Below are positions 4,914 to 33,251 of a stretch of DNA of 64,000 bases, piece by piece (within the stretch, counting starts at the first letter, position 1; each line of letters opens with the position of its first letter). The notes below the pieces were generated by a model. That model had not been told where the DNA came from and made no database searches. It saw only the letters and a list, made by a program, of their open reading frames with translations. The translations under genes were made by a program, and so were the position numbers. Source of the DNA: Nitrospirota bacterium (GTDB lineage Bacteria > Nitrospirota > UBA9217); assembly GCA_963663225.1 (NCBI GenBank), contig OY760142.1, forward strand, positions 195,913 through 259,912. Reading direction: 5' to 3'.

Positions 4914-4930
4914 CTGACGCTCCTTAACAG

Positions 4931-15116: not shown

Positions 15117-15127
15117 TTCATGGTATT

Positions 15128-16273: not shown

Positions 16274-17414
16274 TTTTTATCAGTTTCTTGCCCGGTTTAA
16301 TGACCCGTTGTGACAGGTAATGTACCGCCCTATTGGAGACGTTATTTTTCTTAATAAAAAGCGAGAAATTAAACCGAGTATTGTTTGCCCAGAAGTATTT
16401 ATATTTTTCATCGCCCCGGAGAAAATCAAACTCAGAACATCTCTCGGAAAAAGCTTTTTCGATCATCAGGGATAACAGAACCGTGCCCGCACTTTTTTCT
16501 TCCCCGTGCGCGGACAGTCCTGTTTGGTAATAGTAGTATTTGTTGTTGTACTTTATACAATAATAAAAAGCCTGATAAACCGACTCCTTCAGGAGAAAGG
16601 CAATAATTATTTTGTTTTCATTCAGTAAGTAGCCAACCAAGGATTCGTGGAAACTATAGACCTTGTCTCCTCTGAAGGCAGTCGGATAATTTTTTCTTTT
16701 TGCACGTTCCGCATGAAGCAAGAATAAAGTCTTCAGGTAGTGCTGCAGATTACCGGATTGGCTGTCCAGAATGCGGCATTTCCAGTTTTCCTTTTCCAGC
16801 AGATTTTTTTTCTTGCGCAGAAGTGTATTGCGTGTTTTTCCTGAAAAAGAACCGAGAAAGTCCTCAAAAGTTTTATCGATAGTCAGATAGGGGCAACGAG
16901 AGTCCGCGTTGCATTCAATGAGTAATTTTAGGAGCCCGTTTCGATGATCCGAAAGATACTTTTTTATGCAGGAGTTTTCATGCACGCCTTCCAGTGTTAT
17001 TTCATCCCATTCCATCTCATGCGTCTGTAGATAATCAAATACCAGCTTCGGGAAAAGGTGTTCAACTCTTCTATCGCAAAGAATGTCGAGATGATCGGGA
17101 GCAGTCTCGGAAGAGGAGCAGAATTTGACTGTATTGCGTCGGACACCGAAATATCTTTTTTTCTCGATATAAAACGGCGCAATCCCGACTAGTTGCCCTT
17201 GTGTGTCATAACCACAGACAATAAGTAGTTCTTTCTTTTCGTTTTTAAACGTATTCCACCAGGAAAACATCCACTCCCAAGACAAAAAGAATTCATTCGT
17301 AACGCTTCTGTTCAGGAGTTCGTTCCATTGTTCCCGCAGAAAAGTAAAATCTTTTTCCGAGAGCCGTTTTATAAAAAGAGATTTCACTTCTATGTCTGAC
17401 TTCGTTGTTATCAT
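16248..17414 (-). CDS. FemAB-like / GNAT-fold acyltransferase, paralog 3 of 3
   Basis: 388 aa ORF; LSWEWMFSWWNTF and EFDFLRGDEKYKYFW motifs. Overlaps paralog 2 by 26 nt. Confidence 0.6.
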   Translation of the reverse strand: MITTKSDIEVKSLFIKRLSEKDFTFLREQWNELLNRSVTNEFFLSWEWMFSWWNTFKNEKKELLIVCGYDTQGQLVGIAPFYIEKKRYFGVRRNTVKFCSSSETAPDHLDILCDRRVEHLFPKLVFDYLQTHEMEWDEITLEGVHENSCIKKYLSDHRNGLLKLLIECNADSRCPYLTIDKTFEDFLGSFSGKTRNTLLRKKKNLLEKENWKCRILDSQSGNLQHYLKTLFLLHAERAKRKNYPTAFRGDKVYSFHESLVGYLLNENKIIIAFLLKESVYQAFYYCIKYNNKYYYYQTGLSAHGEEKSAGTVLLSLMIEKAFSERCSEFDFLRGDEKYKYFWANNTRFNFSLFIKKNNVSNRAVHYLSQRVIKPGKKLIKNVYSKDRN

Positions 17415-18633: not shown

Positions 18634-19332
18634 TTACTTTTCTTCTTGTTTTTTGTCTATGGTGTCTGGTTTTGTGCCAGATGATTCTTGGTTCGGTTTC
18701 GAGAAATCGACGGAAAGCAAATGACATTTTAAATCTTTTCTGAATGTTTTCGAGGCCATGATATCCTGCACTTCGAATTTATTCTTACCTTTAAATAAAT
18801 AGTCAAACTTCGTCAGGCCCTGTCGCTCCCATTCCATGAGGCATTTTTGCTTATATTTTTCTACTGTTGAAACACGTATTGCGGGATTTCCTATCATGAT
18901 ACTGCCCGGTTTTACATCGTTGATAACCGTAGCATAGGGGCCGATGATTGAATTTTTTCCAATTCTAACTCCGGCGGATATAGTAGCATGAGCTCCTATA
19001 AAGCAATTATCTTCTATGATGACTTTTCCAAAAAAACGTAAATGCGGGAGCTCGTCTCTGAAAATTACGCTCGCGCCGTCATGCGTCATGAGATCCACGC
19101 CATACGCTATGGAAACACTATCGCCGATTTCAACCAGATAAGGTTCTGAACTCAAGCTTCTAATTTGAAGAAAACAATTTTTCCCGACTATTGCGCCCTG
19201 TTTTCTGAATTTTTCTGCAATCGTAACGTCATTGTAGCGGAATCGTTCGTAAATTCTGTGAAGAATGTAAGCAACCATGTACAAGGGTGCGAGCAAAATT
19301 CTTAGCTTTTTACAGTACATAGACACCTGCAA
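18634..19332 (-). CDS. hexapeptide-repeat (left-handed beta-helix) acyl/acetyltransferase, paralog A
   Basis: 232 aa ORF; N-terminal hydrophobic helix; conserved block AEKFRKQGAIVGKNC...EPYLVEIGDSV...MTHDGASVIF...GKVIIEDNCFIGAHATI shared with 25990..26589 and 28749..29378. Confidence 0.7.
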   Translation of the reverse strand: MQVSMYCKKLRILLAPLYMVAYILHRIYERFRYNDVTIAEKFRKQGAIVGKNCFLQIRSLSSEPYLVEIGDSVSIAYGVDLMTHDGASVIFRDELPHLRFFGKVIIEDNCFIGAHATISAGVRIGKNSIIGPYATVINDVKPGSIMIGNPAIRVSTVEKYKQKCLMEWERQGLTKFDYLFKGKNKFEVQDIMASKTFRKDLKCHLLSVDFSKPNQESSGTKPDTIDKKQEEK

Positions 19333-19361
19333 TATCCATTAAATTTTTTACCGCAAACGCA

Positions 19362-20459
19362 CTATTTAACGTCGCAACGGAAATTTCCCGAATAATCCAC
19401 GCTACCATTTTTGGCGAGTACCACGAGGTTCATTTTTCTAAAACTCGGCACTAAACCCAGCGGTGCATAATCTTCAAAATTCAGATATGTTGCATTTTCA
19501 AATACTACTCCCTTCGCGTTCATCTCTTCCGCACGTTTTACGGCTTCATACAGGAGTGCTGCTATATGCGGCATGCTGCATTCTTTAAAAGGATTTACAA
19601 TCAGGAAGTCGACAACAATAAAAAATTGTGTTTTGCTTTCCTTGATCGTTTCTAACGGATAAAAATTTATAAAAGCGTTTATTTCACCATCGCGTTCTAC
19701 TACAAAAGTTCTGTGCGTGGGATGGCCAAAACAGTAGTGTTTGAGCTGATCTTCCGCCATGGTCAGCATAAAATGCGGTGCATCGGGAATTTTATTAAAC
19801 AATTGCGTCAACTGTCCGGCATCAGCTTCTTCTGCAATTCTTATTCTGGCAGAACCGGGCAACGGAGAATTGTCTTGCAGGTATTTTTTCAAACGTGCGG
19901 GCATGACTACACACTGGTTGAATGTTGAATAAGTTTTTCGCTTCACCTGAAAATATTTTGCCGACAGTTTATCACCTATGCTTTTTAATGGCTTTCCTTC
20001 TTCAATATAGGCAAATGTCGCGCTGCAGTCGGGCTCATAGAAATCTGCATCAGGGTGAAATAAATGAGTATGTTCGGCCAACTGCATTACACAATCCATC
20101 CTGTGGCGTAAATCAAGCCGGGGAGAAACTGCAAGGTGGGTGTTTAAATATGAATTCATTACATTCCCATTACAGATCATTTTTCTAGGGAGAAAACTCT
20201 GAAAGGCCACTAATTCATCATCAAGGAACGCTCCAAGAAGTATGTTTTTGTCAGTATTGGGTCCTCCATACAACCACAGTAAATAGTCCTGGGGAAATAC
20301 CGGGCTTCCTGTTTTGCCGTACAATTGGCTCCAGATAGAATTCAAAAATGTGCCTATTTTCTGCATTTCTTGCAATGAAAGACGCGAAAATTTCAGCAAT
20401 CGTTCATGCCGCAGCAATTTTATAAAAGAAGTAAGTGGTTGTCCGTTTTTAATTTGCAT
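19362..20459 (-). CDS. hypothetical protein (possible GNAT-like acyltransferase fold; function unknown)
   Basis: 365 aa ORF in operon context with no overlap conflicts. I recognise no diagnostic motif; the segment LLGAFLDDELVAFQSF is only weakly GNAT-like. Confidence 0.45.
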   Translation of the reverse strand: MQIKNGQPLTSFIKLLRHERLLKFSRLSLQEMQKIGTFLNSIWSQLYGKTGSPVFPQDYLLWLYGGPNTDKNILLGAFLDDELVAFQSFLPRKMICNGNVMNSYLNTHLAVSPRLDLRHRMDCVMQLAEHTHLFHPDADFYEPDCSATFAYIEEGKPLKSIGDKLSAKYFQVKRKTYSTFNQCVVMPARLKKYLQDNSPLPGSARIRIAEEADAGQLTQLFNKIPDAPHFMLTMAEDQLKHYCFGHPTHRTFVVERDGEINAFINFYPLETIKESKTQFFIVVDFLIVNPFKECSMPHIAALLYEAVKRAEEMNAKGVVFENATYLNFEDYAPLGLVPSFRKMNLVVLAKNGSVDYSGNFRCDVK

Positions 20460-20509
20460 GTATTATGTCCAAGATGTCGCCATGGTCGCTCAAGGTGAAT
20501 TATTTCGGT

Positions 20510-22138
20510 CTATTTGTCCGACGTTCCGTAAACGCTGCTGAGCAGCGCTCTGTCTATTTTCTTGCTTTTATTTTTGGGAAGCTGTTCGAGTCTGACAAGA
20601 TGCTGCGGGATCATATATCGGGGCAGGCTCTTTTTCAGGTTGTGGTGAATCTCTTCATGGCAGTCCGCGGCCGCCTCGTAAACAAGTTTGAGTGACTTAA
20701 TTTCACCGTTTTCCCGGACCGGGATGACAACATTACCCGTCACTGAATCAACTTTTGAAACAACTCTCTCGATTTCCTGCAAATTGATTCGATATCCGAA
20801 AAATTTGATCTGACTGTCCTTGCGGCCATGGATGCAGTAGCCGACCCCGGGAATAAAAGACGCGACATCCCCGGTCCTGTAAAACGGCACCCCGTGCTCA
20901 TCCCTTCCAAAAACCTTGTTCGTTTTGTCAGGATCATTCCAATATCCGATAGACAAATGAGGAGAATGGACGATGAGCTCTCCTCGCTCTTCATTTTCCG
21001 GGAAGTCGGTTTTGTCAAGCGTGAAACGGATTCCCATGATCGGGAAACCGATGGGAACGGCGCCTCCGTCCTCGCCCTTGTAATCGTTCAGCGAGAAAAC
21101 AGCCATCAGTGACGATTCAGTAGATCCATAGCCGTTGATAAACTTTGCGTTGGGCAGCATGGCCATCACAGTTGCCAAAATATTCCGGTTGGCGGGTTCT
21201 CCGCCGAGCAAAACAGTTTTTAGCCCCTGAAGATGCTCCGGCTTGATCAGACCGCTGTTTACGAGAGCGTTCAGCGTCGAGGTGACCAGCAGCGTTCTGG
21301 TGACTTTGTACGTATATGTAAGGTCCAGAATGTCCTTCGGAAAAATTACTTCTTCTGGGTAAACAGCAAGTGTTCCACCTGAACACAGCGGTGGAAATAT
21401 GTCAGCGGTTGAGGCGGAGAATGCGGTTGCATTCAGCCCACTGGTCACGTCATCCACGTTATAACCCAGGGTATCGATCACCCACTGGACATTCTTGAAA
21501 ATATTGCCGTGGGGAATCATGACGCCTTTCGGCTCGCCGGTGGAGCCTGACGTGAAATAAATCATCGCCAGATCATTCGGCAAAAGGTCTACTTTTTGTG
21601 GATCATCCCGCCGCGCGCTTCCGAACGGCAATTTGACGAAATCGCGTTCTTCGCCATCGTCAAGCAGAACGGCCTGAAAACGCCCTGGAGATAGTTCCGC
21701 ACATTTTCTGAACAGGTCAGCTGAAAAGCGGTCGGCAAAAACGCGAAGCGGCGATATTTCAATCAATAAATCAGTCAGTCTGGCCGGCGGTGTTTTGGTG
21801 TCCAGAGGAACAACGACTCCTCCCGCTCTTATGATGCCGATCATGGCGGCATACAGATAGATTGACCTGTTCATCATGAGTGCGACACGATCGCCTTTTT
21901 TCAGACCACTCTCCTGCAGATACTGTGAAACATCGAGAGTCAGTTCGCGCAGTTCATGATAGGTCCATGCTTTGTCATACAGCCGTATCGCGGCTTTTGA
22001 TGCGTGCAAAGCAAACATCTTATCGAGCAGATCCATGATGGTAGAAACGGCTGATTGATTTTCTGCTTGTTTCTGGTTTATCGCGGTGTTTTTTTCCATG
22101 GGATTCTTTTTGACAATTGCATTGTCCTGAAGTTCCAT
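20510..22138 (-). CDS. adenylate-forming enzyme (AMP-dependent synthetase/ligase, acyl- or aminoacyl-activating), ligase 1
   Basis: Start placed at internal ATG (MELQDNAIV) 2 nt after the upstream stop. AMP-binding motifs YFTSGSTGEPKGV, GYGSTE and YRTGD are present. Confidence 0.8.
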   Translation of the reverse strand: MELQDNAIVKKNPMEKNTAINQKQAENQSAVSTIMDLLDKMFALHASKAAIRLYDKAWTYHELRELTLDVSQYLQESGLKKGDRVALMMNRSIYLYAAMIGIIRAGGVVVPLDTKTPPARLTDLLIEISPLRVFADRFSADLFRKCAELSPGRFQAVLLDDGEERDFVKLPFGSARRDDPQKVDLLPNDLAMIYFTSGSTGEPKGVMIPHGNIFKNVQWVIDTLGYNVDDVTSGLNATAFSASTADIFPPLCSGGTLAVYPEEVIFPKDILDLTYTYKVTRTLLVTSTLNALVNSGLIKPEHLQGLKTVLLGGEPANRNILATVMAMLPNAKFINGYGSTESSLMAVFSLNDYKGEDGGAVPIGFPIMGIRFTLDKTDFPENEERGELIVHSPHLSIGYWNDPDKTNKVFGRDEHGVPFYRTGDVASFIPGVGYCIHGRKDSQIKFFGYRINLQEIERVVSKVDSVTGNVVIPVRENGEIKSLKLVYEAAADCHEEIHHNLKKSLPRYMIPQHLVRLEQLPKNKSKKIDRALLSSVYGTSDK

Positions 22139-22142
22139 CGCT

Positions 22143-23354
22143 TTACACGACAATTTCAGCAGGCAGCGCGTGACTGAGAAAATGAAGCGGGCTTGCTGAA
22201 AAACCATATGCTCCTGAATTAAAGAAGAGGAGAACGTCGCCTTCCTCGATGTCGGCAGCCAGTTCAATATCAGTTGCCAATACATCGTCGGGAATGCAAA
22301 GGCTGCCGGTTATTGTGTACCTGATTTCAGCACCGGATTTTTCCTCTCCTGACAGTGTATCAATCTCGTAGTTACGCCGTATTACCTGTCCAATACCGCC
22401 GGCCGCCGCATAGTGTTGATGCATACCGCCGTCAACGACAAGAAATTCACGAGCGTAGCCCTTCTTGCGATACAACACGTGAACCGCGTAAAGCCCGCAT
22501 TCCGCCACCAGAAAGCGGCCTGGCTCGATGATGAACGTGGTGTTTCTGAGCGGAGCCGTAAGCTCTTCATCGGCAAAAAGTCTGGAGAGACCTTCCCTAA
22601 GCGCCGCAAGATCGAGCGGGGGTTTTTTCCCGAACATATCTATCCCCCAGCCGCCGCCAAAGTTTATTTTTTCGATGACAATTCCGTATTTGTTCGCAAT
22701 TTCGACGCTTTTTTCGAGAATAAAGCGATAATTGCTCAAAATCTTGTCTGATTCCTGATATTGTGAACCAAGATGCAGGTGCAGGCCCCGGAAGCGGAGC
22801 ATCTCCGGGTGGGATTTGATTACGGCAATGGCTTCCTCCAACTGGTCTTCAGGAATGCCGAACTGGGTATCTCCTCCCATCTTCATGGCTGAGGCCGCAG
22901 GACGCGTTTTGGGGTTTACCCTGATGCCCACGTTTCCGGCTTTCTTTTTTGCGCGGCAAAGTTTCGCTATCGTGTGTATTTCTGAAACGCTTTCAGCATT
23001 TATGCAGGAAACACCGGCATCGATCGCCTGCGATAATTCATCAAGGGTTTTTCCGGGACCGGTGAATTCTATGCTATCTGACGAAAATCCGGCAATCAGT
23101 GCCGCCGCGAGTTCCCCCCCCGAGGCCACGTCGGCACCCATGCCAAGTGCGTTCATTGTTCTTAAGATGTCATTATTGGGATTGGCCTTGAACGCATAAT
23201 GGATTTTGAAATGCTCTGGCAGACAATCTGACAGGTCACGATACTTTTTTTCAATGACCTTTTTAAAATAACAAAAAACCGGAAGCTTTCTCCCATCAAG
23301 AAAAGCGAGAAGTTCCGATTTTGGTATCAGCTTGTAAAATTCTTGCTTGTTCAT
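22143..23354 (-). CDS. PLP-dependent decarboxylase, Orn/DAP/Arg decarboxylase fold (diaminopimelate-decarboxylase-like)
   Basis: 403 aa ORF; HYAFKANPNNDILRTMNALGMGADVASGGEL and GLHLHLGSQ motifs. Confidence 0.8.
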   Translation of the reverse strand: MNKQEFYKLIPKSELLAFLDGRKLPVFCYFKKVIEKKYRDLSDCLPEHFKIHYAFKANPNNDILRTMNALGMGADVASGGELAAALIAGFSSDSIEFTGPGKTLDELSQAIDAGVSCINAESVSEIHTIAKLCRAKKKAGNVGIRVNPKTRPAASAMKMGGDTQFGIPEDQLEEAIAVIKSHPEMLRFRGLHLHLGSQYQESDKILSNYRFILEKSVEIANKYGIVIEKINFGGGWGIDMFGKKPPLDLAALREGLSRLFADEELTAPLRNTTFIIEPGRFLVAECGLYAVHVLYRKKGYAREFLVVDGGMHQHYAAAGGIGQVIRRNYEIDTLSGEEKSGAEIRYTITGSLCIPDDVLATDIELAADIEEGDVLLFFNSGAYGFSASPLHFLSHALPAEIVV

Positions 23355-24951
23355 ATTTGTTTTTTATTTCCGCGTATCGAACTTTGCCGTTTTCAGCCAG
23401 GGGCAGACTTTTCACAATGTTGATGTTGTCAGGCACCATATACGACGGCAGGCGTTCCTTCATATGTTTGATAAGGTCTTCTTTTTTTAGACCGTCACAG
23501 GAAATGATTTCCGCTATTATGTTGTGGCCTTTCCGATCATCCGGAATTCCCACTACCGCGCAGTGTGTCACTCCAGGATGTTCCAGAATGCAGCTTTCCA
23601 CTTCTTTGGGATAAATTCTGAATCCTGAGCTCTTGATCATTCCATCTTCACGTCCCAAAACATACAGAAAACCATCGCGGTCGATTTTTCCACGGTCACC
23701 GGTAAAAACCACCTTGCCCGCAGAGATCGTTGGCTTTAAACACGCGGGTATCTCTGCAAGTTTTTTCTGCGAACCAGCAACTTCATTGATATACCCAAGC
23801 ATGGTGCCAGCACCGTAATGAATTATTTCTCCTTCTTCGTCCGGGGATGCGATTTGGGTATTGTCTTTCAAAATAAAAATGCGAGTCCCCTTAACCGGAC
23901 GGCCTACCGATGTCATTTTACCATCATAGTCGTTCGCTTTTAATATGCCGCTTCTGAACGTTTCACTCTGCCCGTATGTTTTTATTATTTTCGTCCTCGG
24001 GAAATAATGCTTCAACTGTTCCAAATATTTTCGTGCGAGGTCTCCTCCGGAAACAGTGATGTATCGCAATGTTTTCGTATCTTCCGGGAAGCCGTCTTCT
24101 CGGGGAACAGAAAGCATATCGGCCCAGATGGTAGGCACTGCGGAAATCCCTGAGATATTAAATCGTTTGATTGCCGTTGCAATATCCCGTGGAAACCAGG
24201 AATTCAAAATAATAAGATGGGCGCCCGATAAAATGCTCGAAAAGAGCTGATTCAGTCCGACATCAAACGAAAAAGGCAGCAGGCTGAGCAAACAATCTTC
24301 CCTGTTAATTTCAAAATCTTCAATTTCTGTGGTGACTCTGACGTACAGATCGTCGCGATCGATTAACACACCCTTTTGCTCACCTGTCGATCCTGAAGTA
24401 AATAAGCAGTATCCGCGTTTTTTCTGGGAATTTGAGAATGGAGCATGTATCCGGGGATCGCCCATGCCGTCAATTGCTGCAGAAGCGCCGGATTGTTGAG
24501 ATTCCTGGACCCTGCGAGCCGGGATAAAATTCAAAAACTCGATTCCATCGCTACAAAGAGCAAACCGCATATTCGATGTAATAGCATCTTCAGACGACAT
24601 AATCTGCTTTACCGTGCTTCTGTTGAGAATGATAAATTTAGGTTTGGCAACTCTCGCCAATCTTATTACGTGAGGTGGCTTCAGCCTCGAATTCAATGAA
24701 CAGGCGGCGCCGCCGGCCAAAATGGCACCAAGAATGGTTACTGCTGCATCGATGGACTTGTTCATGTAACTAGCAACCAGATCATTCGGCTGCATCCCCT
24801 CTCTGGTAAAGAAGTCTGCAACTTCTTTTACTTTTCGAGCCAGCATGCCATAGGTCAGGGTTTGGAGTGTTCCCCCGGGCAAACAGTGGGAAATCGCAGC
24901 TTTGTCATTGTGTCGCGCAAATGCCTGCTCTATGCGTCGGGAAAGAATCAA
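23296..24951 (-). CDS. adenylate-forming enzyme (AMP-dependent synthetase/ligase), ligase 2
   Basis: 551 aa ORF; LFTSGSTGEQKGV, YGQSE and FTGDRG motifs. The first codon appears to be TTG, overlapping the stop of the upstream carrier-protein gene. Confidence 0.75.
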   Translation of the reverse strand: MILSRRIEQAFARHNDKAAISHCLPGGTLQTLTYGMLARKVKEVADFFTREGMQPNDLVASYMNKSIDAAVTILGAILAGGAACSLNSRLKPPHVIRLARVAKPKFIILNRSTVKQIMSSEDAITSNMRFALCSDGIEFLNFIPARRVQESQQSGASAAIDGMGDPRIHAPFSNSQKKRGYCLFTSGSTGEQKGVLIDRDDLYVRVTTEIEDFEINREDCLLSLLPFSFDVGLNQLFSSILSGAHLIILNSWFPRDIATAIKRFNISGISAVPTIWADMLSVPREDGFPEDTKTLRYITVSGGDLARKYLEQLKHYFPRTKIIKTYGQSETFRSGILKANDYDGKMTSVGRPVKGTRIFILKDNTQIASPDEEGEIIHYGAGTMLGYINEVAGSQKKLAEIPACLKPTISAGKVVFTGDRGKIDRDGFLYVLGREDGMIKSSGFRIYPKEVESCILEHPGVTHCAVVGIPDDRKGHNIIAEIISCDGLKKEDLIKHMKERLPSYMVPDNINIVKSLPLAENGKVRYAEIKNKYEQARILQADTKIGTSRFS

Positions 24952-25220
24952 GCTTCATCTCCCGCCAATTTCTTTTCAATAAAATACGATATTTTGCTTA
25001 TGGAGTCGAAATTGTCCAAAGAAAGTTCCGCCGGATAAAAAATAACGTCAAATTTCTCTGAAAAAGCCTCAATAATCTGGATTGCTCCGAGAGAGTCGAT
25101 TAGCCCGCTGTCGATCAGCGAATCCTCTTCACCAATACTAGTACCACTCCCATTGCCATCCTTTGCGGCAATCTCTGTTATTATTTGTTTAACCGCTCCT
25201 TTTATTTCTGCTAACTCCAT
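24948..25220 (-). CDS. acyl/peptidyl carrier protein (phosphopantetheine-binding)
   Basis: 90 aa ORF; carrier-protein serine motif GLIDSLGAIQIIE; GGGGGG RBS-like run 8-13 nt upstream of the ATG. Confidence 0.75.
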   Translation of the reverse strand: MELAEIKGAVKQIITEIAAKDGNGSGTSIGEEDSLIDSGLIDSLGAIQIIEAFSEKFDVIFYPAELSLDNFDSISKISYFIEKKLAGDEA

Positions 25221-25282
25221 GCTGAATGCCCCCCATTCAACGATTATTTTTATAATGATGCAGCAATGTATATTTTTTTGAC

Positions 25283-25993
25283 TTACCTTTGCAGGAGATC
25301 CCGCAAGAGGTTATCCAGTATCTCATACGCTTTTTGGTTTAAGTGTGTTCCGTCTCCACTGTTTAACTCATCACGAAGAGAACGCTCGCGGTCGCTTTTC
25401 CGTAATGCAGCCTCGAGGTCAATCAGCGTGATTTTCTCTTTTTTGGCGTAATCCCGAATCCAGTCATTGTAGGCCAAAATGCCTTCTATTTTGCCTTGCA
25501 CAGCCTCCGCGCGTGCGCGTGTAACAGGGACAACGGTCGCCAATATCACCTCTACGCGCGCGTCACGAATCCGCTTGACCCATTTTTGCACCAGTTCCTG
25601 CTGAAGGGCGATGTCGCCTGGAAAATAGGACGAACATTCTTTAATAACAATAATGTTCGGCAACACGGGTGACGGCCGGAAAAAACCCTTTATGTATGAC
25701 AGCGTAAAGTGAAACTTTCTTTTCGGACGCATCAGGATTTCATCGATTGCTTCCGTTTTATCAAACTGATACACCGCTATAAATTCGACGCTATGAGCGC
25801 GGTCACCCGTCCGCTGGGAATACTCTGCAAGTTTCCATGCCTTCCCGATGGAAGCCCCGACAAACATCACGTTTTTTTTGGAGGCATCCGCTTTACCCTG
25901 ATCCTGGATTTGCGTACAACCGGTCAGCACAAGCAAGCCTGCCGCTACAACGAAGAATATTTTTTTTACGGCCTTAATCATAGAGAACCTCAC
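25283..25993 (-). CDS. lipoprotein, putative SGNH/GDSL-type hydrolase
   Basis: 236 aa ORF; signal peptide with lipobox (LVLTGCTQ); C-terminal SGDGTHLNQKAYEIL resembles the SGNH block V (DGxH). Block I is not canonical. Confidence 0.5.
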   Translation of the reverse strand: MRFSMIKAVKKIFFVVAAGLLVLTGCTQIQDQGKADASKKNVMFVGASIGKAWKLAEYSQRTGDRAHSVEFIAVYQFDKTEAIDEILMRPKRKFHFTLSYIKGFFRPSPVLPNIIVIKECSSYFPGDIALQQELVQKWVKRIRDARVEVILATVVPVTRARAEAVQGKIEGILAYNDWIRDYAKKEKITLIDLEAALRKSDRERSLRDELNSGDGTHLNQKAYEILDNLLRDLLQR

Positions 25994-26589
25994 GCAAGGT
26001 CATCCTTGAACAATTTCAGCAAATGTTGTTTTAAATGTTGGCTATTTTGGCGTGCATATTTTGTGGACCACCAATTTTCGTCATTTTCCAGCTGTATGTC
26101 GGGTGGCTTTTGCATCTTCCATCGCTCAAGACATTTTTCCTTGTATTTCAATACAGAACCGAACGGCCGCGCAGGCACTCCCATAACAATAGTATCAGGG
26201 GGAACATCCGCGATCACAACTGAACCGGCACCGACAATCGAATTTTTTCCGATTCTGATACCCGGAAACAGGATGGCGTTCTGACCGATGATGCAATTAT
26301 CTTCTATTACGATGGGACCGAATATCTGAAGGTCCGGCACCTCATGCCTGAAAACCCAGGCGCCTCCATCGTGAGTCATGAATTTCACTCCCTGAGCAAT
26401 ACCGACGTGATTTCCGATTTTAATGAGATACGGTTCAGTGCCGAGCTGGGTTGGAATTATTCTGCAATGCTCTCCTATCTGGACCCCTTGTTTTCTGAAA
26501 TATTCCGCGATAGTATCCGCATTATACTTTCGAAGTTCATACGCTTGCAGCAACCGGGCTACAACTTTTTTAAGCACCTTAAAAATCAT
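25990..26589 (-). CDS. hexapeptide-repeat acyl/acetyltransferase, paralog B
   Basis: 199 aa ORF; [15 protein letters not shown]...EPYLIKIGNHV...MTHDGGAWVF...GPIVIEDNCIIGQNAIL, collinear with paralogs A and C. Confidence 0.7.
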   Translation of the reverse strand: MIFKVLKKVVARLLQAYELRKYNADTIAEYFRKQGVQIGEHCRIIPTQLGTEPYLIKIGNHVGIAQGVKFMTHDGGAWVFRHEVPDLQIFGPIVIEDNCIIGQNAILFPGIRIGKNSIVGAGSVVIADVPPDTIVMGVPARPFGSVLKYKEKCLERWKMQKPPDIQLENDENWWSTKYARQNSQHLKQHLLKLFKDDLA

Positions 26590-26615
26590 TGACCTGACTC
26601 CTTTTGTATTCCCGC

Positions 26616-28700
26616 CTAGTTTACAGCGTGTGCGTGAGCACGGTCGCTTTCGTCTGCCGTTAAAATGAGATCAACCAGCTCTTTTCTGGTTTCCTCAAAA
26701 AAATCTGGAGTCCATTCCGATTCTCCATCCTGACGACAGACTGGTTCTCCGGATTTGCCTCGGATTCTTGAGAAAAAGTCTTCATAACGGGAAGTGTCTA
26801 TTCCTTTCCGCTTCAATACAGAAACCCGCTTTACAAGCTGATACAGCAGCTTATGGTCATTAATCCCCTCGCGGATTGCTTCCCATTTGAGCGTCGGCAC
26901 CGGACCGGACGGAGCTGGATAGGCCAGATACAGATCGTGCCCCGGTGTATCCGCCTTTTCCGGGAGGCCGCTTGCATTCTGCGTATTCTGAAATGTCCAG
27001 GATGACATTCCGTCAATGTTCTTCATCCACGTGTAATATCCGTACACATACCGTGCATAGGCGGGATTATCACATTGAGTAGTTATATTATTATTGTATA
27101 TCCAGTAACGTGAACCATTTTGATGGGCGGCCTGCATCTCGTGTTCATTCATTTCCGCAGAGCACAGATAATCAACCGGCGAGAACTGATCGTATCGAAG
27201 AGACGTAAGCATTGTTTTTCCACCCGACTCTTTTACGGCCTTAAGCAGCACGGGCGTTACAGCATATCGTTTCTTCTGTAAATCCTGCTGTGAATCATCC
27301 GGTTCATCGATAGGTAAAAATATGACCGGTGGGCAGTGATTTTCTTTTGCAAATTCCGTAACTGTTCTGACAAGATGACGTAGACGCTCCTCGTGTACTT
27401 TTTGATCAAAACCTTTTATGTTTCCCGGATGCTTCGGTTTGGCAGTTTGGATAAGATGTCCCATATACCAGATGACAGGCTTTGTAAATCCGGTGTCTCG
27501 TGCCGCGAGAAGAGCGGCGAAAACATCGTCCAGAACCAGGGTGCCGTCATCCCGGGTAAGAGCGACGAAGGGAGAATGGATTGAAAGCGTAGTCATGCCA
27601 TGCTCTCTATAGTTTTTCAAAACTGCTCGCGCCGAGCGCCGGAGTTCGTTCTTCTCTTTCTCATTCCATGGAAAGACAAGCTCCGTAAATTCGTACGTCA
27701 TGAGCATGAAATAGTCTTTATCCGGGATATCTTCTGTAATAATGGGGAGAACCATAATCTGGAGCGGTATTGTTTTACTCTTCCCATATTGCGGCAAAAC
27801 CGTTATTGTTCCCGTGTACTTGCCCGGCAGAACGGATTGATCAATTTTTGCTGTTAGCCAGAAACGGCAATGACCTCCTTTTTTAACGGAAGTCTTGCTC
27901 TTAGATCTGATCAGGGCAGGGAGCCGCCTGAATTCTCCTGGCGGGAGGCCTGTCGAATCCTCTACTGATTCGACAACCCCGATTTTAATTTTTTCTTTTG
28001 CGATGGTCCCCTGCGGGCCGTTCAAATCTTCAATTGCTAATTTTACCGTTCCGAGGTTCCTGCTAGAAAATAAGGAAATACTGATTGGAAGATATATATT
28101 TCGTGCCGTCCGTATTGATATTTCGCGAATGCTTTCCGCCGCTTCCGGCACCGTCCCCGGATATTCATAGAGTAGCGGAGACCGCAAAAAAACAACATAG
28201 CCGTCGGGGAAATCGACATCATTCGTTTTTATCTTCGCGGATTCATTCCGTAACGGCATCTCACGGTAGGCGATGGGAGTATGTATCCGTTCGGAATCGT
28301 TATAGTTCCTCAGCTCGGATTGCAATACAGACTGGGTAATAAAAACCGTGAAGATCCGTTGATCGTCTGCGGCCTCCAGCTGAATGTCGTATTTCCCTTC
28401 AGACAACGGGGATGGAAGATCGAAAAGAAGATTGCCGTTTTTCTCCCGTACCAGTATGGTCTGTGCCTGTGCAATAATATTGCCGTCCCGACAAAGAGTT
28501 CCTTTGACCTTCAGCCGGTCAATATGCTCCGCACCGCCAGAAACAGTAAACGCAGCATAAAGCGCTTTCTTCAGCTGAACTTGGTCAAGCACCGCTACTC
28601 TATCCCGAAGAATTAGAGAATCTATATGGATTGATTTTGTTTTGCAGGCTGGGCAAAGAACAGCAACGACAAGAGCAAATATCCCAAGAAGTCTTTTCAC
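26616..28700 (-). CDS. large secreted lipoprotein, function unknown (possibly a glycan-active enzyme)
   Basis: 694 aa ORF with signal peptide and lipobox (ALVVAVLCPACK); aromatic-rich; no motif I can assign. Confidence 0.55.
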   Translation of the reverse strand: MKRLLGIFALVVAVLCPACKTKSIHIDSLILRDRVAVLDQVQLKKALYAAFTVSGGAEHIDRLKVKGTLCRDGNIIAQAQTILVREKNGNLLFDLPSPLSEGKYDIQLEAADDQRIFTVFITQSVLQSELRNYNDSERIHTPIAYREMPLRNESAKIKTNDVDFPDGYVVFLRSPLLYEYPGTVPEAAESIREISIRTARNIYLPISISLFSSRNLGTVKLAIEDLNGPQGTIAKEKIKIGVVESVEDSTGLPPGEFRRLPALIRSKSKTSVKKGGHCRFWLTAKIDQSVLPGKYTGTITVLPQYGKSKTIPLQIMVLPIITEDIPDKDYFMLMTYEFTELVFPWNEKEKNELRRSARAVLKNYREHGMTTLSIHSPFVALTRDDGTLVLDDVFAALLAARDTGFTKPVIWYMGHLIQTAKPKHPGNIKGFDQKVHEERLRHLVRTVTEFAKENHCPPVIFLPIDEPDDSQQDLQKKRYAVTPVLLKAVKESGGKTMLTSLRYDQFSPVDYLCSAEMNEHEMQAAHQNGSRYWIYNNNITTQCDNPAYARYVYGYYTWMKNIDGMSSWTFQNTQNASGLPEKADTPGHDLYLAYPAPSGPVPTLKWEAIREGINDHKLLYQLVKRVSVLKRKGIDTSRYEDFFSRIRGKSGEPVCRQDGESEWTPDFFEETRKELVDLILTADESDRAHAHAVN

Positions 28701-28748
28701 AATCGTTCAGTCATCTATGATAAAGAGATGCAGAGGGTGAAATAAAGA

Positions 28749-29378
28749 TCACTTTTTATCCCGGTAGAGGCTGATAAGATGCTCCTGCAGTAACCTGCAA
28801 TCACGGTTTTTCAGCTGCTGAATCCGTTCCGGCGACCGGGATTCGCTCTGCTGAATGCCTGCAAAATATGCCGAGGGACACTGTTTTTTCCATAATGCCA
28901 ATACTTTCTCTTTATATTTGTCGGTCGTTGAAACAATTCTTGCAGGATTTCCGGCCACGATTGCTCCTTCAGGGACATCCTTGGTCACAACTGCACCCGC
29001 CCCTACAATTGCATTCGGTCCGATTTTAACATTTCCCAGAATGATTGCGTTAAGGCCGATAAAACAATTATCGGCTATCTCAATGGGGCCGAACCGTTGC
29101 ACGCTGGGGTGTTCGTCGGTAAAGATCCAAGGCGACCCGTCATGGCTCAGAAAAATCACGTTCGGTGCTATCGTGCAATGGCTGCCGATTCTGATTAAAT
29201 ACGGCTCCTGTCCTAGCGAGCTTACGTATATTCTGTTGCGGTCGCCGATGATCGCTCCCTGCTTCCTAAAATATTCCGCAATGGTGAATTCGTTGTACCG
29301 GTTCAGTTCAATACTATGCTGAATGCGCCGTTTTACGCTTTGTACAATTTTAATCAGTGCGTTTACCATCACAACCAC
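28749..29378 (-). CDS. hexapeptide-repeat acyl/acetyltransferase, paralog C
   Basis: 209 aa ORF; [15 protein letters not shown]...[11 protein letters not shown]...[10 protein letters not shown]...[17 protein letters not shown]. Confidence 0.7.
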
Positions 29379-29423: not shown

Positions 29424-30443
29424 CTATAATCCCAGTTTCTTTTTTGCGTTATTTATAAACGCCAACTCCGGATCGGAGTATATTTTTTGATACCCGTCTT
29501 CCCTTGTCATTACTCCGTCCCGGACCATGTTGGCGATTTCCCACACGTACGGGTGAAAACCATGGCGTTTCAGATGGACATCATTCCCGAAGGCATTGAG
29601 AAGACAGTTCGTGGAATTGCTGTCCGTGTCCTGAGGCGCCGTCCACCCGAATTCTCCGATCTGTTCAACCAGTGTTCCTTCGTGGTAAAACTCCCAGGCC
29701 ATGGGGTGAACGTTATAGGGGAACCGTTCCTGCATGGCGAAATGCTTCTCATTCAGAAAATATGATTCGATATCGGTTCCAGCCACTTCGCGCAGCGGAT
29801 TCAGGACCGCTTCCTGCGACATTTTGACGAGTGACGGATTCGTTCTCATAATCGAGGACTGCACCGGCGCCTGTCCAGGCGACCACCCGTATCCGATCAT
29901 GGGTATTTCCTGTTCAATGGCTGTTTTCAAACAGTATGACTTCACAATAGCCATACACGAGGTACAGATGGTACTTGCTCGTTCAAGCGTTTTTTTCGAA
30001 TATAGATCGCGGTCTGCTGCAACTGCAAAAATTTTTTTCAAAATGTCCCAGCGCGGTTTGAAAAAAATATGGTCCACATTCAACCGATCAGTCACCCGCC
30101 GAATGTTCGCCACGGCCGTCTCGGACACGAACCCGTTGTCCAGACTGACTGCCAGCACCCGCAGTCGGTATTTGTTTTTGAGCAGACTCATGGTGTAGGT
30201 CGAGTCTTTCCCGCCGCTATATGCCATCAAAATATCATAGGATCGGCGCCGGGCTGCCGGTCCTCCTGTCTGCTCCAGTAAATCCAGGAACTTCCGTTCA
30301 TATCTTTTTTTGTCTTCGGCGTGTTTTTTTTCCTTTCCGGCGGCCTGCTGGCAGTGCACGCAAACACCGGCTTCATCAAAACTGATGCCGGGAAAGGTTC
30401 CCGGCAATATGCAGCGCGTACAAACGGTTATATTAGATGACAT
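29424..30443 (-). CDS. N-acetyl sugar amidotransferase-like PP-loop ATPase (WbuX/PseA-like)
   Basis: Start at internal ATG (MSSNITVCTRC). N-terminal zinc-ribbon cysteines CTRC...CVHC followed by PP-loop motif YSGGKDS. Confidence 0.65.
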   Translation of the reverse strand: MSSNITVCTRCILPGTFPGISFDEAGVCVHCQQAAGKEKKHAEDKKRYERKFLDLLEQTGGPAARRRSYDILMAYSGGKDSTYTMSLLKNKYRLRVLAVSLDNGFVSETAVANIRRVTDRLNVDHIFFKPRWDILKKIFAVAADRDLYSKKTLERASTICTSCMAIVKSYCLKTAIEQEIPMIGYGWSPGQAPVQSSIMRTNPSLVKMSQEAVLNPLREVAGTDIESYFLNEKHFAMQERFPYNVHPMAWEFYHEGTLVEQIGEFGWTAPQDTDSNSTNCLLNAFGNDVHLKRHGFHPYVWEIANMVRDGVMTREDGYQKIYSDPELAFINNAKKKLGL

Positions 30444-31305
30444 GGTTTGCAGTCCTTTTCTTCGTGGCCCGTATTGCTCGTATTTTGTCTCCATCTTTGA
30501 AATACTCGATATTCTGATAACCGCCGCTTTTTTCGATTACTCGGGTGACCAGGGTCTCCTGCCGTTCACCGATTTCAAAGAGCAGGACTCCGTCCGGCTT
30601 CAGCAACGGCTGCGCATCTGTGATCAGCCGGCGGTAGATGTTAATCCCGTATGGCCCGCCGTCAAGCGCGACGAGCGGCTCATGGTCAATAATTTCGGCA
30701 GACAGTTTGCTGAGTGAGCTTGTCGGTATATAAGGCGGATTACATACGATGCAGTCTATATTTTCTTCGTATTCCACTCCTGCATAAGGCGCGAACAGGT
30801 CTCCGACCGCGAGAGAAATCCTGTCCTCGAGCTTGAACTTTGCCACGTTCCGGCGGGCTATCTCCACCGCGGCAGAACTGATGTCACTGGCCAGAACCGA
30901 TACCTGTTGTGCCTGCAGGGCAATGGATACTGCGATGTTTCCGCAGCCGGTTCCTACTTCGATCAGCGTGAGGGTCTTGCCGGCAGATTCTTTTTTACAC
31001 AGCGATTCAAGAACTGCGTTCACTAATACTCTGGTTTCATCGGTCGGAATCAGCGTATCCGGAGTGCAGAAAAACATGCGTCCCATAAAATGCGCTTTAC
31101 CGAGAATATACTCCCAGGGCATTCCTTTTTTCCTTTTTTGAATCGCAAGTTCAAGATTGATCTGTTCCCCCTCCGCATGCGTTAAGGTCGCTCCCCGCAG
31201 CGCGCCGCTCGACAGCAGGTCAAAAAGGCGCAAAGTCTCGTAAAGAGAGTTTTCCGTGCCGGCTTGTTCAATCAAAGTATAACTGCGTAAAAAATCATGG
31301 AACAT
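30433..31305 (-). CDS. HemK/PrmC-family SAM-dependent methyltransferase (NPPY-type)
   Basis: 290 aa ORF; SAM-binding LIEVGTGCGNIAV and catalytic CNPPYIP motif. Confidence 0.7.
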   Translation of the reverse strand: MFHDFLRSYTLIEQAGTENSLYETLRLFDLLSSGALRGATLTHAEGEQINLELAIQKRKKGMPWEYILGKAHFMGRMFFCTPDTLIPTDETRVLVNAVLESLCKKESAGKTLTLIEVGTGCGNIAVSIALQAQQVSVLASDISSAAVEIARRNVAKFKLEDRISLAVGDLFAPYAGVEYEENIDCIVCNPPYIPTSSLSKLSAEIIDHEPLVALDGGPYGINIYRRLITDAQPLLKPDGVLLFEIGERQETLVTRVIEKSGGYQNIEYFKDGDKIRAIRATKKRTANHVI

Positions 31306-31319
31306 GAATAATAACCTCG

Positions 31320-32870
31320 TTATTCGTTTACGGCCATCAAGAGTGTTTTGCTGATTTTACCCGTTGTAGTCTTTGGAAGAGTTTCCAGAATTTCTACATA
31401 CTTGGGAACCATAAAGTTTTCGAGATGGTCCGCGCAATATTTCAAAATATCCTTTTCCGTCAGGCGCGCACCGTTCTCCAGCGCGACATACGCTTTAATT
31501 GCCTGGCCGAAAATTTCATCCGGAACACCAACGACTGCCGCCTCCACAATGCCGTCGAGCGCATACAGTACATTTTCCACTTCCTTCGGACTGACTTTTT
31601 CACCCTTGCATTTTATGATATCGTCTTTTCTTGCAACAAAATAAAAATATCCGTCCTCGTCCGTTCTGAAAAGATCACCGGTGTATAAGAGCCGCTCTCC
31701 TGGATACGTGCCCGGCTTCAGACGTTTTGCCGTTTCTTCGGGCAGATCCCAATATCCAAGCATTACATTGGAACCTCTCACCACCAATTCTCCCACCTCT
31801 CCGGGTGGCATCCGTCGGCCTTTTTCATCGACGATGAAAATTTCTTCATTCGGCATGCCTTTTCCCACGGAAGTGGGTTTTTTCTCAAGATCTGCCGGAG
31901 GCAGATAGGAAACCCGTTTGCATTCCGTCAAGCCGTACATCGAGTAGAGCTTTGCCTGGGGGAAAAGCTCACGCAATCTTTTTATATGGCTGACCGGCAG
32001 TGCCGCAGCGGTATTGGTAATGTACCGCAGAGTACTGAAGTCATATTTCTGAATATCTTTCATTTGCAGCAGAAGAGAAAAAATCGTCGGAACGCCGGGA
32101 AAACCCGTAACCTTTTCTTCAGTCATTACTTTAAGGACTTGAGCAGGGTAGGCAAAGGATTTTTCCAGCACGACGGTAGCGCCGACTCTGAATCCCATAA
32201 GAATCTGGTAAAGGCCGTAATCGAAGGTGAGCGGCAGCACATTGATAATGATATCCTGATCGGTATTGTCAAGATATGTCGTTATTGAATGCGCAGCCGA
32301 AACCATGTTCAGGTGAGAGAGCATGACCCCTTTCGGATTTCCCGTTGATCCAGAAGTATAAACGATGGAAGCCAGATCGAGATCAATGCATGTTTTTTTT
32401 ATGGAGCCGTTTATCGCATTGTTGCACGTAATTTTCTCAAAGGACAGAGGGGAGGACGCCAGACCGCTCCATATAACCGTTTGGAGATGGGGGGAAGTCG
32501 TGGACGCCACGACGTCCTTCCGGGCGTTCTGGGTAATCATTACCTTTGCCCTGCTGTTGTTCAGAATATACTCAAGTTTTCCGGACTTGGTCGTGTGATT
32601 GATCATCATGAATGCCGCGTTTGCCTTGAGTATTCCGAAAAGCGCAATGACTGCTTCGACCGAGTTGTCCATGAATACGGCGACCCGGTCGCCGCGCTCA
32701 ACTCCGGACGCCGCAAGAGCATGGGCAAGACGTTCTGAACGGGAATCTATATCAGCATACGTAAAACGCTTTCCCTGATAAATCAGCGCTGTTTTTTCCG
32801 GAAATTTTTGTGCGCTGGTTTCGAGAAAATGATTGACAAGTGTATGTCTGAACATGGCGGTGTCCATCAT
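31320..32870 (-). CDS. adenylate-forming enzyme (AMP-dependent synthetase/ligase), ligase 3
   Basis: 516 aa ORF; YTSGSTGNPKGV, YGLTE and YTGDL motifs. Confidence 0.8.
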   Translation of the reverse strand: MMDTAMFRHTLVNHFLETSAQKFPEKTALIYQGKRFTYADIDSRSERLAHALAASGVERGDRVAVFMDNSVEAVIALFGILKANAAFMMINHTTKSGKLEYILNNSRAKVMITQNARKDVVASTTSPHLQTVIWSGLASSPLSFEKITCNNAINGSIKKTCIDLDLASIVYTSGSTGNPKGVMLSHLNMVSAAHSITTYLDNTDQDIIINVLPLTFDYGLYQILMGFRVGATVVLEKSFAYPAQVLKVMTEEKVTGFPGVPTIFSLLLQMKDIQKYDFSTLRYITNTAAALPVSHIKRLRELFPQAKLYSMYGLTECKRVSYLPPADLEKKPTSVGKGMPNEEIFIVDEKGRRMPPGEVGELVVRGSNVMLGYWDLPEETAKRLKPGTYPGERLLYTGDLFRTDEDGYFYFVARKDDIIKCKGEKVSPKEVENVLYALDGIVEAAVVGVPDEIFGQAIKAYVALENGARLTEKDILKYCADHLENFMVPKYVEILETLPKTTTGKISKTLLMAVNE

Positions 32871-33142
32871 CAGGCGTTTTGGACCGCAACCGGTCCCGTA
32901 CTTGCTTTTTTGGCGACAAAATCGGCGAGCTTGCCGATGGAATCAAAGTTATCGGGTATTATTTCATCATCGGTTACGGCGAACCCGAATTTCTCTTCGA
33001 CAAAGGACACTAGTTCGAGCACGCCGGTTGAGTCGATAATGCCTTTTTCCAGAAAAGAGACCTCGTCGGTCAGTGTATGGTCATCCTGACCATATAAAAA
33101 GTTTTCTATGACAAAGGCTCTGATTACATCTTTCTGTTGCAT
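32870..33142 (-). CDS. acyl/peptidyl carrier protein (phosphopantetheine-binding), second copy
   Basis: Start at internal ATG (MQQKDVIRAF) with GGGGGAG RBS 7 nt upstream; carrier serine motif GIIDSTGVLELVSF. The longer ORF-track start at 33232 lacks this support. Confidence 0.7.
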   Translation of the reverse strand: MQQKDVIRAFVIENFLYGQDDHTLTDEVSFLEKGIIDSTGVLELVSFVEEKFGFAVTDDEIIPDNFDSIGKLADFVAKKASTGPVAVQNA

Positions 33143-33251
33143 AGTGGTGCTCCCCCTTTTGCTGGTTAATCGTATCTCTGTACACGTATATGTATATGTT
33201 AAAATGCCCGATAGAGCTGAGTTGATATGCATCCAGACGATCGCGGGATAA

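Follow-up and report, generated by a model that had tools for sequence, protein, structure and literature searches.

Why a single exopolysaccharide (EPS) operon should carry three related acyltransferase genes, and what the exported proteins encoded between them contribute, are the questions raised by a 64,000-nucleotide stretch of DNA from a Nitrospirota bacterium (assembly GCA_963663225.1, contig OY760142.1, positions 195,913 to 259,912 of the forward strand), referred to here in its whole length as the window. A preliminary description made from the sequence had recognized three hexapeptide acyltransferase paralogs interleaved with two putative lipoproteins of 236 and 694 aa, and had proposed several acylation sites and a possible periplasmic editing of the acyl pattern. 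In this report, we examine the three paralogs, designated LbH1, LbH2 and LbH3 for their left-handed beta-helix (LbH), together with their neighbours. We consider it probable that LbH1-3 acylate the EPS unit in the cytoplasm, that the 236-aa SGNH-fold protein edits it and that the 694-aa protein, which resembles glycoside hydrolase family 123 (GH123), trims it. The genes lie in the tailoring section of one long minus-strand XrtA/PEP-CTERM EPS operon, which was surveyed with NCBIfam and Pfam scans of essentially every open reading frame (ORF) of at least 150 aa between positions 3 and 42688.

The three-way alignment of LbH1-3 is collinear and contains 63 invariant columns, bearing out the long shared block that had been reported for the three minus-strand genes (Table 1). 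Identity is 39-46% over global alignments (39-41% for LbH1 against LbH2 and LbH3) and 46-51% in pairwise BLASTP (E 1e-47 to 1e-60). The invariant motifs comprise the non-repeat N-terminal YN..TIAE(Y/K)FRKQG, EPYL, (T/S)HDG, FG, DNC.IG and a C-terminal KYK.K.L..W helix; the string AEYFRKQG, first given for all three, holds for LbH2 and LbH3, whereas LbH1 reads AEKFRKQG. Because the similarity reaches well outside the hexapeptide repeats, it reflects true paralogy and is not repeat-driven. The acyltransferase label likewise holds, with scores of 36-45 bits for PF00132 and 32-37 bits for PF14602 against a gathering threshold of 27 bits. The proteins matched 114 LbH chains in the PDB, their closest solved relatives being maltose/galactoside O-acetyltransferases (3hjj, E 6e-16; 1kqa; 1ocx) and polysialic acid O-acetyltransferase. 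With WcaF/WcaB, maltose O-acetyltransferase (MAT) and LacA, the galactoside O-acetyltransferase (GAT), they share a length of about 200 aa and a layout of N-terminal helix, GA.IG, short LbH, loop with a conserved His, further LbH and C-terminal extension; unlike that class, they fall below all equivalog cutoffs and carry the signature YN..TIAE(Y/K)FRKQG...EPYL...HDG...FG...DNC.IG...KYK.K.L..W of their own. His84 in (T/S)HDG is invariant in the three paralogs and in all 16 clade members, and a HMMER alignment, which compares sequence only, sets it 2 residues from the His of the MAT motif ATHP. No hydrophobic segment of transmembrane grade was found in LbH1, LbH2 or LbH3, so we regard them as cytoplasmic; the N-terminus is an amphipathic helix. 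The family is large, with more than 1179 homologs at E<=1e-10 and, in a separate count, 805 clusters at 50% identity; it bears generic names only, and its signature is characteristic of exosortase-type EPS loci.

Are all three copies functional, and do they differ? The closest genome locus, L009 from an uncultured Nitrospiraceae metagenome-assembled genome (MAG), has an identical gene order and proteins 87-99% identical to those of the window, save for one GNAT-like protein at 70%. Against the orthologs in L009 and L008, dN/dS of LbH1-3 is 0.052-0.065, indicating strong purifying selection, and pseudogenisation, which the preliminary description had named as something that would overturn its reading, is rejected. 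Nor is it credible, beyond a very slight chance, that the copies are redundant or decaying duplicates without separate roles. The longest ORF of LbH1 does start with TTG, with an ATG at codon 5, and ends in a lineage-specific, low-complexity tail rich in K and E, which might hint at decay; but dN/dS is 0.05-0.065 in all three, every family-invariant residue is retained, and each copy has 57-69% identical orthologs in other phyla-level lineages, with conserved neighbours. Judged from sequence, LbH1-3 are three intact, functional and distinct LbH acyltransferases.

Identity matrices and a neighbour-joining tree that included the LbH genes of related loci resolved three clades. LbH3 is 56-60% identical to L001_b, L003, L005_b and L007, and its clade also has a member in L006; these genes follow an XrtA-associated deacetylase and precede a glycosyltransferase (GT) and a GH123-like gene, in the order deacetylase-LbH3-GT2-GH123 in L003, L006 and L007. 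The LbH2 clade contains L006_b, L108, L109 and L110 (65-68% identity), to which L001_a and L005_a are sister. LbH1 groups with genes of L017, L018 and L029 (57-67% identity; 57-89% when L009 is included) and is rare: a 50%-identity library held one full-length representative, 64% identical, and when metagenomes were scanned with the LbH1 alignment, most matches were generic LbH proteins, the pattern IEDNCFI being unspecific, which left two useful close relatives, L028 and L029. This clade structure rejects a recent tandem duplication, and the tree portrays the three copies as ancient, functionally distinct lineages, not local duplicates.

The paralogs had been described as dispersed, and they are indeed separated, by the 236-aa and 694-aa proteins as noticed at the outset and by five further genes between LbH1 and the SGNH gene (an acyl carrier protein, ACP; two adenylating enzymes; a pyridoxal phosphate (PLP)-dependent decarboxylase; and the GNAT-like protein) that the preliminary description had not mentioned. 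Yet dispersal is not the whole of it, since each is tied to a conserved partner: LbH2 is translationally coupled to the SGNH gene, LbH3 lies in a core block with a carbohydrate esterase family 4 (CE4) deacetylase, a GT2 and the GH123-like gene, and LbH1 accompanies a cassette of ACP, adenylating enzyme, PLP decarboxylase and A-domain enzyme. That every clade keeps neighbours of its own is easier to reconcile with different acylation tasks than with redundant copies. Several LbH copies at different positions are normal in polysaccharide loci, colanic acid having two. Thus, the suggestion of several acylation sites was well placed as far as the three distinct LbH clades are concerned, and multi-site acylation of the polysaccharide is likely; the editing of the acyl pattern, for its part, does not extend to the 694-aa protein, as set out below.

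The 236-aa protein is an SGNH-like lipoprotein as first described, in its fold, its triad residues and its lipobox. PF13472 scored 37 bits (cutoff 32.9), and Foldseek returned 98 PDB matches at E<=1e-3, of which the top 50 listed are all SGNH proteins, bar de novo designs on a GDSL-like scaffold; they include acylhydrolases, acetyl-xylan, carbohydrate and sialate O-acetylesterases and PatB O-acetyltransferases. The predicted model is confidently of the SGNH fold. G46-A47-S48-x-G50 (GASIG) and D214-G215-x-H217 (DGTH), which supply the nucleophile Ser, the Asp and the His, are invariant in 62 sequences, and the only invariant Asn of the family, N176, lies elsewhere than block III. In residues 118-125, a strictly conserved Cys120 stands where block III is expected; this atypical oxyanion-hole region might bear on esterase versus transferase chemistry. 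The lipobox LLVLTGC, with Cys26, passes a PROSITE PS51257-like rule. Among the 62 sequences, an N-terminal hydrophobic segment is present in 57 and a canonical lipobox in 10, so export appears to be general and lipidation lineage-specific.

The pairing of this gene with LbH2 is close. The SGNH ORF and the end of LbH2 share 4 nt; with the ATG at codon 5 as start, the SGNH gene would instead begin 9 nt beyond LbH2. The gene directly upstream of it belongs to the LbH2 clade in the window and in L008, L009, L006, L108, L109 and L110, that is, in every locus examined with DNA upstream of a close SGNH homolog. L108, L109 and L110 were reached from distant SGNH homologs (46-53% identity) and have no GH123 gene nearby. 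The arrangement recalls peptidoglycan O-acetylation, in which the periplasmic esterase Ape1 is encoded beside the acetyltransferase whose product it edits. Ape1, the proteins of its cluster with PatB and the SGNH carbohydrate and sialate O-acetylesterases have in common with the 236-aa protein an exported SGNH fold and a Ser-Asp-His triad; in contrast to the Ape1/PatB cluster, the place of an MBOAT/SGNH pair is taken here by a cytoplasmic LbH enzyme as partner, block I has GAS where GDS would be usual, and block III is KEC..YFP. By this analogy, periplasmic de-acylation by the SGNH partner is plausible. The SGNH fold does not separate esterases from transferases, and so acyl editing is something that we infer for this protein; of the two lipoproteins for which editing had been suggested, it is the only candidate, as the GH123 fold of the other would act on sugar linkages, not esters. 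In the related locus L005, an AT3 (Acyl_transf_3) gene is followed directly by one for a 223-aa GDSL protein (14938-16703), the classic split OafA/OatA-type O-acetyltransferase arrangement, which contrasts with the LbH2-SGNH pairing of the window.

The 694-aa protein had been called a lipoprotein of unknown function, and structure prediction gives it a different character. In its model, beta-sandwiches at the N-terminus are followed by a (beta/alpha)8 barrel and a C-terminus made of helices, and Foldseek ranks 1-22 are all GH123-type beta-N-acetylgalactosaminidases or hexosaminidases (E 1e-25 to 1e-18, 578-639 aligned columns). With GH123/DUF4091 enzymes (BvGH123, 5l7u; CpNga123, 5fqe; NgaDssm, 8k2j; Niabella, 8p4l) it shares the same three-part fold over about 600 columns at TM-scores of 0.5-0.67, and the DUF4091 segment YP..GP...WE..R.G..D aligns by sequence; it differs from them in its 10-16% identity and in carrying an additional beta-sandwich at the N-terminus and a long stretch of helices at the C-terminus, and the sequence matches to 8p4l, 8k2j and 5fqe are weak and two-sited. 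An invariant DE pair is also present: D465-E466 is conserved in 55 homologs and, in the model, follows barrel strand 459-462 at its C-terminal end. A DE motif occurs in 94% of DUF4091 proteins, for which a substrate-assisted mechanism is documented (PMC11087588); the putative equivalence of D465-E466 to this pair is based on fold and strand position only. At the N-terminus, a strongly hydrophobic segment is followed by a conserved Cys19, and the lipobox LCPAC fails the strict rule (Pro at -2). The rule is passed by 6 of 55 homologs; of the 36 that have an N-terminal hydrophobic segment, 35 have a Cys at its end or beyond it, and the homologs seemingly without a signal have mis-called starts. 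On these sequence features the protein is exported and probably, not certainly, lipidated.

On its predicted fold, then, the 694-aa protein is a glycoside hydrolase cutting sugar linkages, not an acyl hydrolase. Export and a hydrolase fold were rightly foreseen for it, whereas it is a GH123-type glycosidase in which the canonical lipobox rule fails; fold prediction also answers the concern that the lipoproteins might be unrelated to hydrolases, both being exported hydrolase-fold proteins. Its gene recurs as part of the core of such loci in MAGs of Nitrospirota and Thermodesulfobacteriota. Known GH123 enzymes are catabolic, whereas this exported protein is encoded inside a biosynthetic EPS operon, and by role it resembles PslG, PelA, PgaB and BcsZ, the polymer-processing enzymes of other EPS systems. 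The same operon encodes, at 7644-8945 (minus strand), a pectate-lyase-like beta-helix protein whose C-terminus is a 'choice-of-anchor Q' domain; from its sequence, it would be a second candidate polymer-cleaving enzyme.

Together, these features suggest a scheme in three steps. LbH1-3, as soluble cytoplasmic enzymes of the WcaF and maltose/galactoside O-acetyltransferase class, would each transfer an acyl group, probably acetyl, onto a different position of a sugar-nucleotide or lipid-linked repeat unit rich in N-acetylhexosamine (HexNAc) before export. The SGNH lipoprotein would most likely remove or redistribute the LbH2-installed ester after export, a periplasmic O-deacylation comparable to that by Ape1, and the GH123-like protein would cleave beta-linked HexNAc linkages of the polymer in the periplasm, with substrate assistance involving Asp465/Glu466. 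Several points weigh against this scheme. The named equivalogs WcaF, NeuD/PglB/VioB, Mac, LacA, Vat, WbbJ and EpsC were not reached by LbH1-3, the best scores being 55-72 bits against NCBIfam cutoffs of 150-475, so that acceptor, donor and O- versus N-specificity would not be assignable from families. Linkage counts are small, at 4 to 7 loci per pairing. In the SGNH protein, the GxND of block III was not found in the 62 sequences, where invariant K118-E119-C120..Y123-F124-P125 follows the third strand (114-117), and several homologs match the AlgX model PF16822. As for the 694-aa protein, neither a profile search nor a search with residues 400-540 against PDB sequences aligned the D465-E466 segment with GH123 enzymes, and hmmscan did not report the GH123 catalytic domain PF13320, giving only the N-terminal models PF22680 and PF19543, both under their cutoffs; precomputed annotations place PF13320 in homologs, including the 92%-identical P0121.

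The first step could instead be N-acylation, with the LbH paralogs acting as N-acetyltransferases of the PglD/VioB/QdtC kind on amino sugars made by DegT or exposed by the CE4 enzymes, an alternative that we rate as possible, if unlikely. The NeuD/PglB/VioB subfamily is the best NCBIfam match of all three (E 1e-15 to 1e-20), structures of the QdtC, VioB and WlbB type are among the PDB matches, and the operon encodes a DegT aminotransferase, a sugar formyltransferase-like protein and three CE4 deacetylases. But the NeuD-family matches span the C-terminal LbH only (profile 100-202) and, with 55-72 bits, fall short of the cutoff of 161; LbH1-3 lack the N-terminal Rossmann-like domain of PglD and NeuD, while their top structures and their architecture (N-terminal helix, GA.IG, loop His and short LbH) are those of the MAT/GAT/WcaF class; and with LbH2 so closely paired to an esterase-fold protein, an ester would be a more fitting product than an amide. 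Still less probable is that the SGNH lipoprotein is a periplasmic O-acyltransferase like AlgX, AlgJ, PatB or OatA, which acylates after export instead of editing the LbH2 product. PatB O-acetyltransferases among the fold matches (8tlb, 7tjb), together with the AlgX-model matches and the atypical block III, would agree with such a role; its obligatory partner, an MBOAT or AT3 acyl translocase, is missing among the scanned operon ORFs, which is why an esterase is favoured, the best fold matches are esterases and acylhydrolases, and the invariant partner is a cytoplasmic LbH enzyme that could not donate across the membrane.

A different donor has to be weighed for LbH1, and possibly for other copies: rather than using acetyl-CoA, it might move an ACP1-tethered acyl or aminoacyl group, activated by LIG_23296 and/or LIG_20510 and with the PLP decarboxylase as a likely modifier, onto an amino or hydroxyl group of the EPS, in a polysaccharide tailoring akin to nonribosomal peptide synthetase (NRPS) chemistry. 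We think this rather unlikely, to about the same degree as N-acylation. LbH1-clade genes follow a LIG_20510-type enzyme in all four independent lineages with upstream DNA visible (window/L009, L017, L018 and L029), and ACP1 is DltC-like. LbH enzymes with carrier-bound donors exist, as LpxA and LpxD; the V. cholerae tetronate (wbeK-O) group, of which the existence is confirmed, presumably has a similar composition of ACP, ligase and LbH. The combination of LbH, carrier protein and adenylating enzyme in one pathway near LbH1 is also that of LpxA/LpxD, Pls/PosA and the tetronate group, the likeness of LbH1 to LpxA/LpxD and Pls/PosA itself being generic LbH similarity. The polymerisation domain of Pls/PosA has been modelled as three LbH units and uses carrier-bound aminoacyl donors (PMC10522769), and V. 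cholerae O1 has a dedicated five-gene group for tetronate N-acylation (PMC3441752). LbH1-3 match the Pls/PosA terminal-domain model TIGR02353 weakly (E 1e-8 to 1e-10), and these matches, which like those to LpxA and LpxD are sub-threshold, are equalled or surpassed by those to a dozen acetyl-CoA LbH families. Moreover, the link between LbH1 and ACP1 is one of gene adjacency, the sole evidence for this donor, in a handful of loci; the GNAT-like gene between ligase and LbH1 could encode the real transferase of the cassette; and LIG_20510 has FSAS in its A4 motif, without the Asp. The reading that we prefer remains acylation, probably acetylation, by all three LbH enzymes. A special likeness to the Pls/PosA terminal domain was rejected on the same E-values, FRKQGA.IG being an ordinary WcaF-type motif, and literature searches on acetyltransferases in PEP-CTERM loci and on ACP/LbH genes of V. 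cholerae tetronate returned nothing specific.

Table 1. Features of the tailoring section of the operon, in order of position in the window (GA, gathering threshold; AF2, AlphaFold2; DAP, diaminopimelate)
Feature	Position	Strand	Evidence
LbH1, divergent, rare LbH acyltransferase paralog, 232 aa	18634..19332	-	Hexapep above GA; dN/dS 0.059
GNAT/NMT_C-like protein, 365 aa, between ligase and LbH1	19362..20459	-	weak NMT_C match only
LIG_20510, stand-alone NRPS A-domain/DltA-like adenylating enzyme	20510..22285	-	TIGR01733 275 bits; DltA and NRPS matches
PLP-dependent decarboxylase (DAP-decarboxylase fold), exosortase-A-associated type	22143..23354	-	TIGR03099 353 bits (<478 cutoff); Orn_Arg_deC_N 151 bits
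LIG_23296, AMP-forming ligase, exosortase-A-associated type	23296..24951	-	TIGR03098 345 bits, under cutoff
ACP1, carrier protein (DltC-like), DSL phosphopantetheine-attachment motif	24948..25220	-	PP-binding above GA; best NCBIfam match DltC
Exported SGNH-fold lipoprotein, 236 aa	25283..25993	-	Lipase_GDSL_2 above GA; AF2 pLDDT 90.4; lipobox
LbH2, LbH acyltransferase paralog, SGNH-paired clade, 199 aa	25990..26589	-	Hexapep above GA; dN/dS 0.062-0.064
Exported GH123-fold glycoside hydrolase (DUF4091 type, predicted), 694 aa	26616..28700	-	AF2 pLDDT 83.8, pTM 0.85
LbH3, LbH acyltransferase paralog, 'core' clade, 209 aa	28749..29378	-	Hexapep above GA; dN/dS 0.052-0.065
WbuX-like N-acetyl-sugar amidotransferase (PP-loop ATPase)	29424..30494	-	TIGR03573 151 bits, under cutoff; 67% orthologs in L003 and L006
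Second carrier pair, AMP-ligase LIG_31320 (31320-32870) and ACP2 (32870-33232)	31320..33232	-	TIGR03098 492 bits; ACP matches

The LbH1 cassette has features of its own. LbH1 orthologs are located downstream of a LIG_20510-type ligase in L009, L017, L018 and L029, directly so in the last three, and the full cassette of ACP1, LIG_23296 and PLP decarboxylase is present in L009, L017 and L018. The longest ORF of LIG_20510 overlaps the decarboxylase gene by 143 nt, and its true start is probably Met50, near nt 22138. Its A3 motif is TSGSTGEPKG and its A4 motif FSAS, not FDxS, with FDVG and FDYG in the other two ligases; what is missing from A4 is presumably the Asp that binds the alpha-amino group, and the substrate is probably not an alpha-amino acid. 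L009 alone yielded an ortholog of the GNAT-like protein. The segment that joins LbH1 and this protein (18634-20459) is far more diverged from its counterpart in L009 (18194-20073) than the rest of the locus: LbH1 has a dS of 1.07, where LbH2 and LbH3 have 0.27, and identity drops to 70% in the GNAT-like protein while its neighbours keep 87-99%. These values suggest that the sub-cassette was exchanged by recombination or evolves faster. A Dlt-like D-alanylation system, with a DltA-like ligase, a DltC-like ACP and the SGNH protein as a DltD analogue, was considered and rejected, as no MBOAT protein (DltB) is encoded by the scanned ORFs and as, in loci without the cassette, the SGNH gene stays with LbH2 rather than with the ACP.

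The wider operon shows the setting in which these enzymes work. XrtA/PEP-CTERM EPS loci were reportedly defined by Haft and colleagues in 2006 (TIGR030xx families). The marker families in the window comprise the export protein, the chain-length determinant, the tyrosine autokinase and the outer-membrane protein (TIGR03016), with NCBIfam scores that all pass: TIGR03027 212 bits (cutoff 180), TIGR03007 398 (279), TIGR03018 234 (231) and TIGR03016 142 (91). After these markers, the order of transcription is epimerase, AsnB-type amidotransferase, ACP2, AMP-ligase, PrmC/HemK-like methyltransferase, WbuX-like amidotransferase, LbH3, 694-aa protein, LbH2, 236-aa SGNH protein, ACP1, AMP-ligase, PLP decarboxylase, A-domain-like ligase, 365-aa GNAT-like protein, LbH1, GT4, three FemAB-like Acetyltransf_6 paralogs, GT2s, three CE4 deacetylases, flippase, Wzy-like protein, pectate-lyase-like protein, formyltransferase-like protein, DegT aminotransferase and PglC-type priming transferase. 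Besides the markers, the AsnB-type amidotransferase, ACP, ligase, PLP decarboxylase and FemAB-like genes are shared with XrtA/PEP-CTERM loci; unlike in typical loci of this type, no exosortase gene was found among the scanned ORFs. A search of these ORFs for an AT3 or MBOAT gene was likewise negative. In related loci XrtA/EpsI sits between the WbuX-like gene and the deacetylase, and the exosortase gene of this operon may lie outside the window. The XrtA-associated ligase, decarboxylase and amidotransferase score under the XrtA-specific equivalog cutoffs and appear, by sequence, to be related variants of these families. LIG_31320 and ACP2 are encoded directly downstream of the AsnB-like amidotransferase, the WbuX-like gene is kept after the ACP2-ligase pair in related loci, and the whole AsnB-ACP-ligase-WbuX block is kept in L003, L006 and L109.

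The remaining genes tell something of the polymer. HexNAc chemistry is suggested by the three CE4 deacetylases, the WbuX-like amidotransferase and the DegT aminotransferase. The deacetylase genes (1054-1848, 5712-6572 and 11841-12878, minus strand) include one of the DUF3473/XrtA type and one that is PgaB-like, and the DegT gene overlaps the sugar-formyltransferase-like gene (3690-5710, minus strand); the deacetylase trio and this gene pair point to a HexNAc or amino-sugar polymer that is de-N-acetylated and then re-acylated. Just downstream of LbH1 and the GT4 gene, the three tandem FemAB-like genes (13989-17414, minus strand; 375, 381 and 388 aa) form a second paralog trio of the operon, which may add amino-acid or acyl substituents. 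Also within this EPS operon, and overlapping the WbuX-like ORF, is a gene for a protein N5-glutamine methyltransferase of the PrmC/HemK, release-factor type (30433-31305, minus strand; TIGR03534 208 bits, cutoff 199); among the related loci, just L008 and L009, both close relatives, retain it. At the head of the operon, which extends over about 40 kb, a NusG-domain paralog (41114-41767, minus strand), beside an AAA_22 ATPase, probably acts as an RfaH/LoaP-like antiterminator specific to this operon.

XrtA/PEP-CTERM loci underlie the flocs and biofilms of many environmental bacteria, among them Nitrospirota, Thermodesulfobacteriota and wastewater organisms, and most of their tailoring genes are generically named. 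Our analysis adds module assignments, namely three non-redundant acyltransferase clades with defined partners and an SGNH partner for one of them, while the GH123-type glycosidase implies a polymer that contains beta-HexNAc. A bolder reading, which we consider unlikely, would make LbH1 carrier-protein-dependent, its cassette building an unusual acyl or amino-acid-derived group on ACP1 that LbH1 transfers to an XrtA-type EPS, and would have LbH2 write and the SGNH protein then erase O-acyl groups, in a cycle by which export or polymerisation is gated. If true, it would reveal an NRPS-like decoration route for a secreted polysaccharide and provide the first functional assignment for the long-unexplained 'exosortase-A-associated ligase/ACP/decarboxylase' genes. 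The components themselves belong to known kinds, multi-copy acyltransferases are routine in polysaccharide loci, and the scheme is essentially an ordinary one of decoration and trimming. Thus, the value of the locus lies in better annotation and in two modestly interesting hypotheses, the LbH2-SGNH dyad and the LbH1-carrier cassette.

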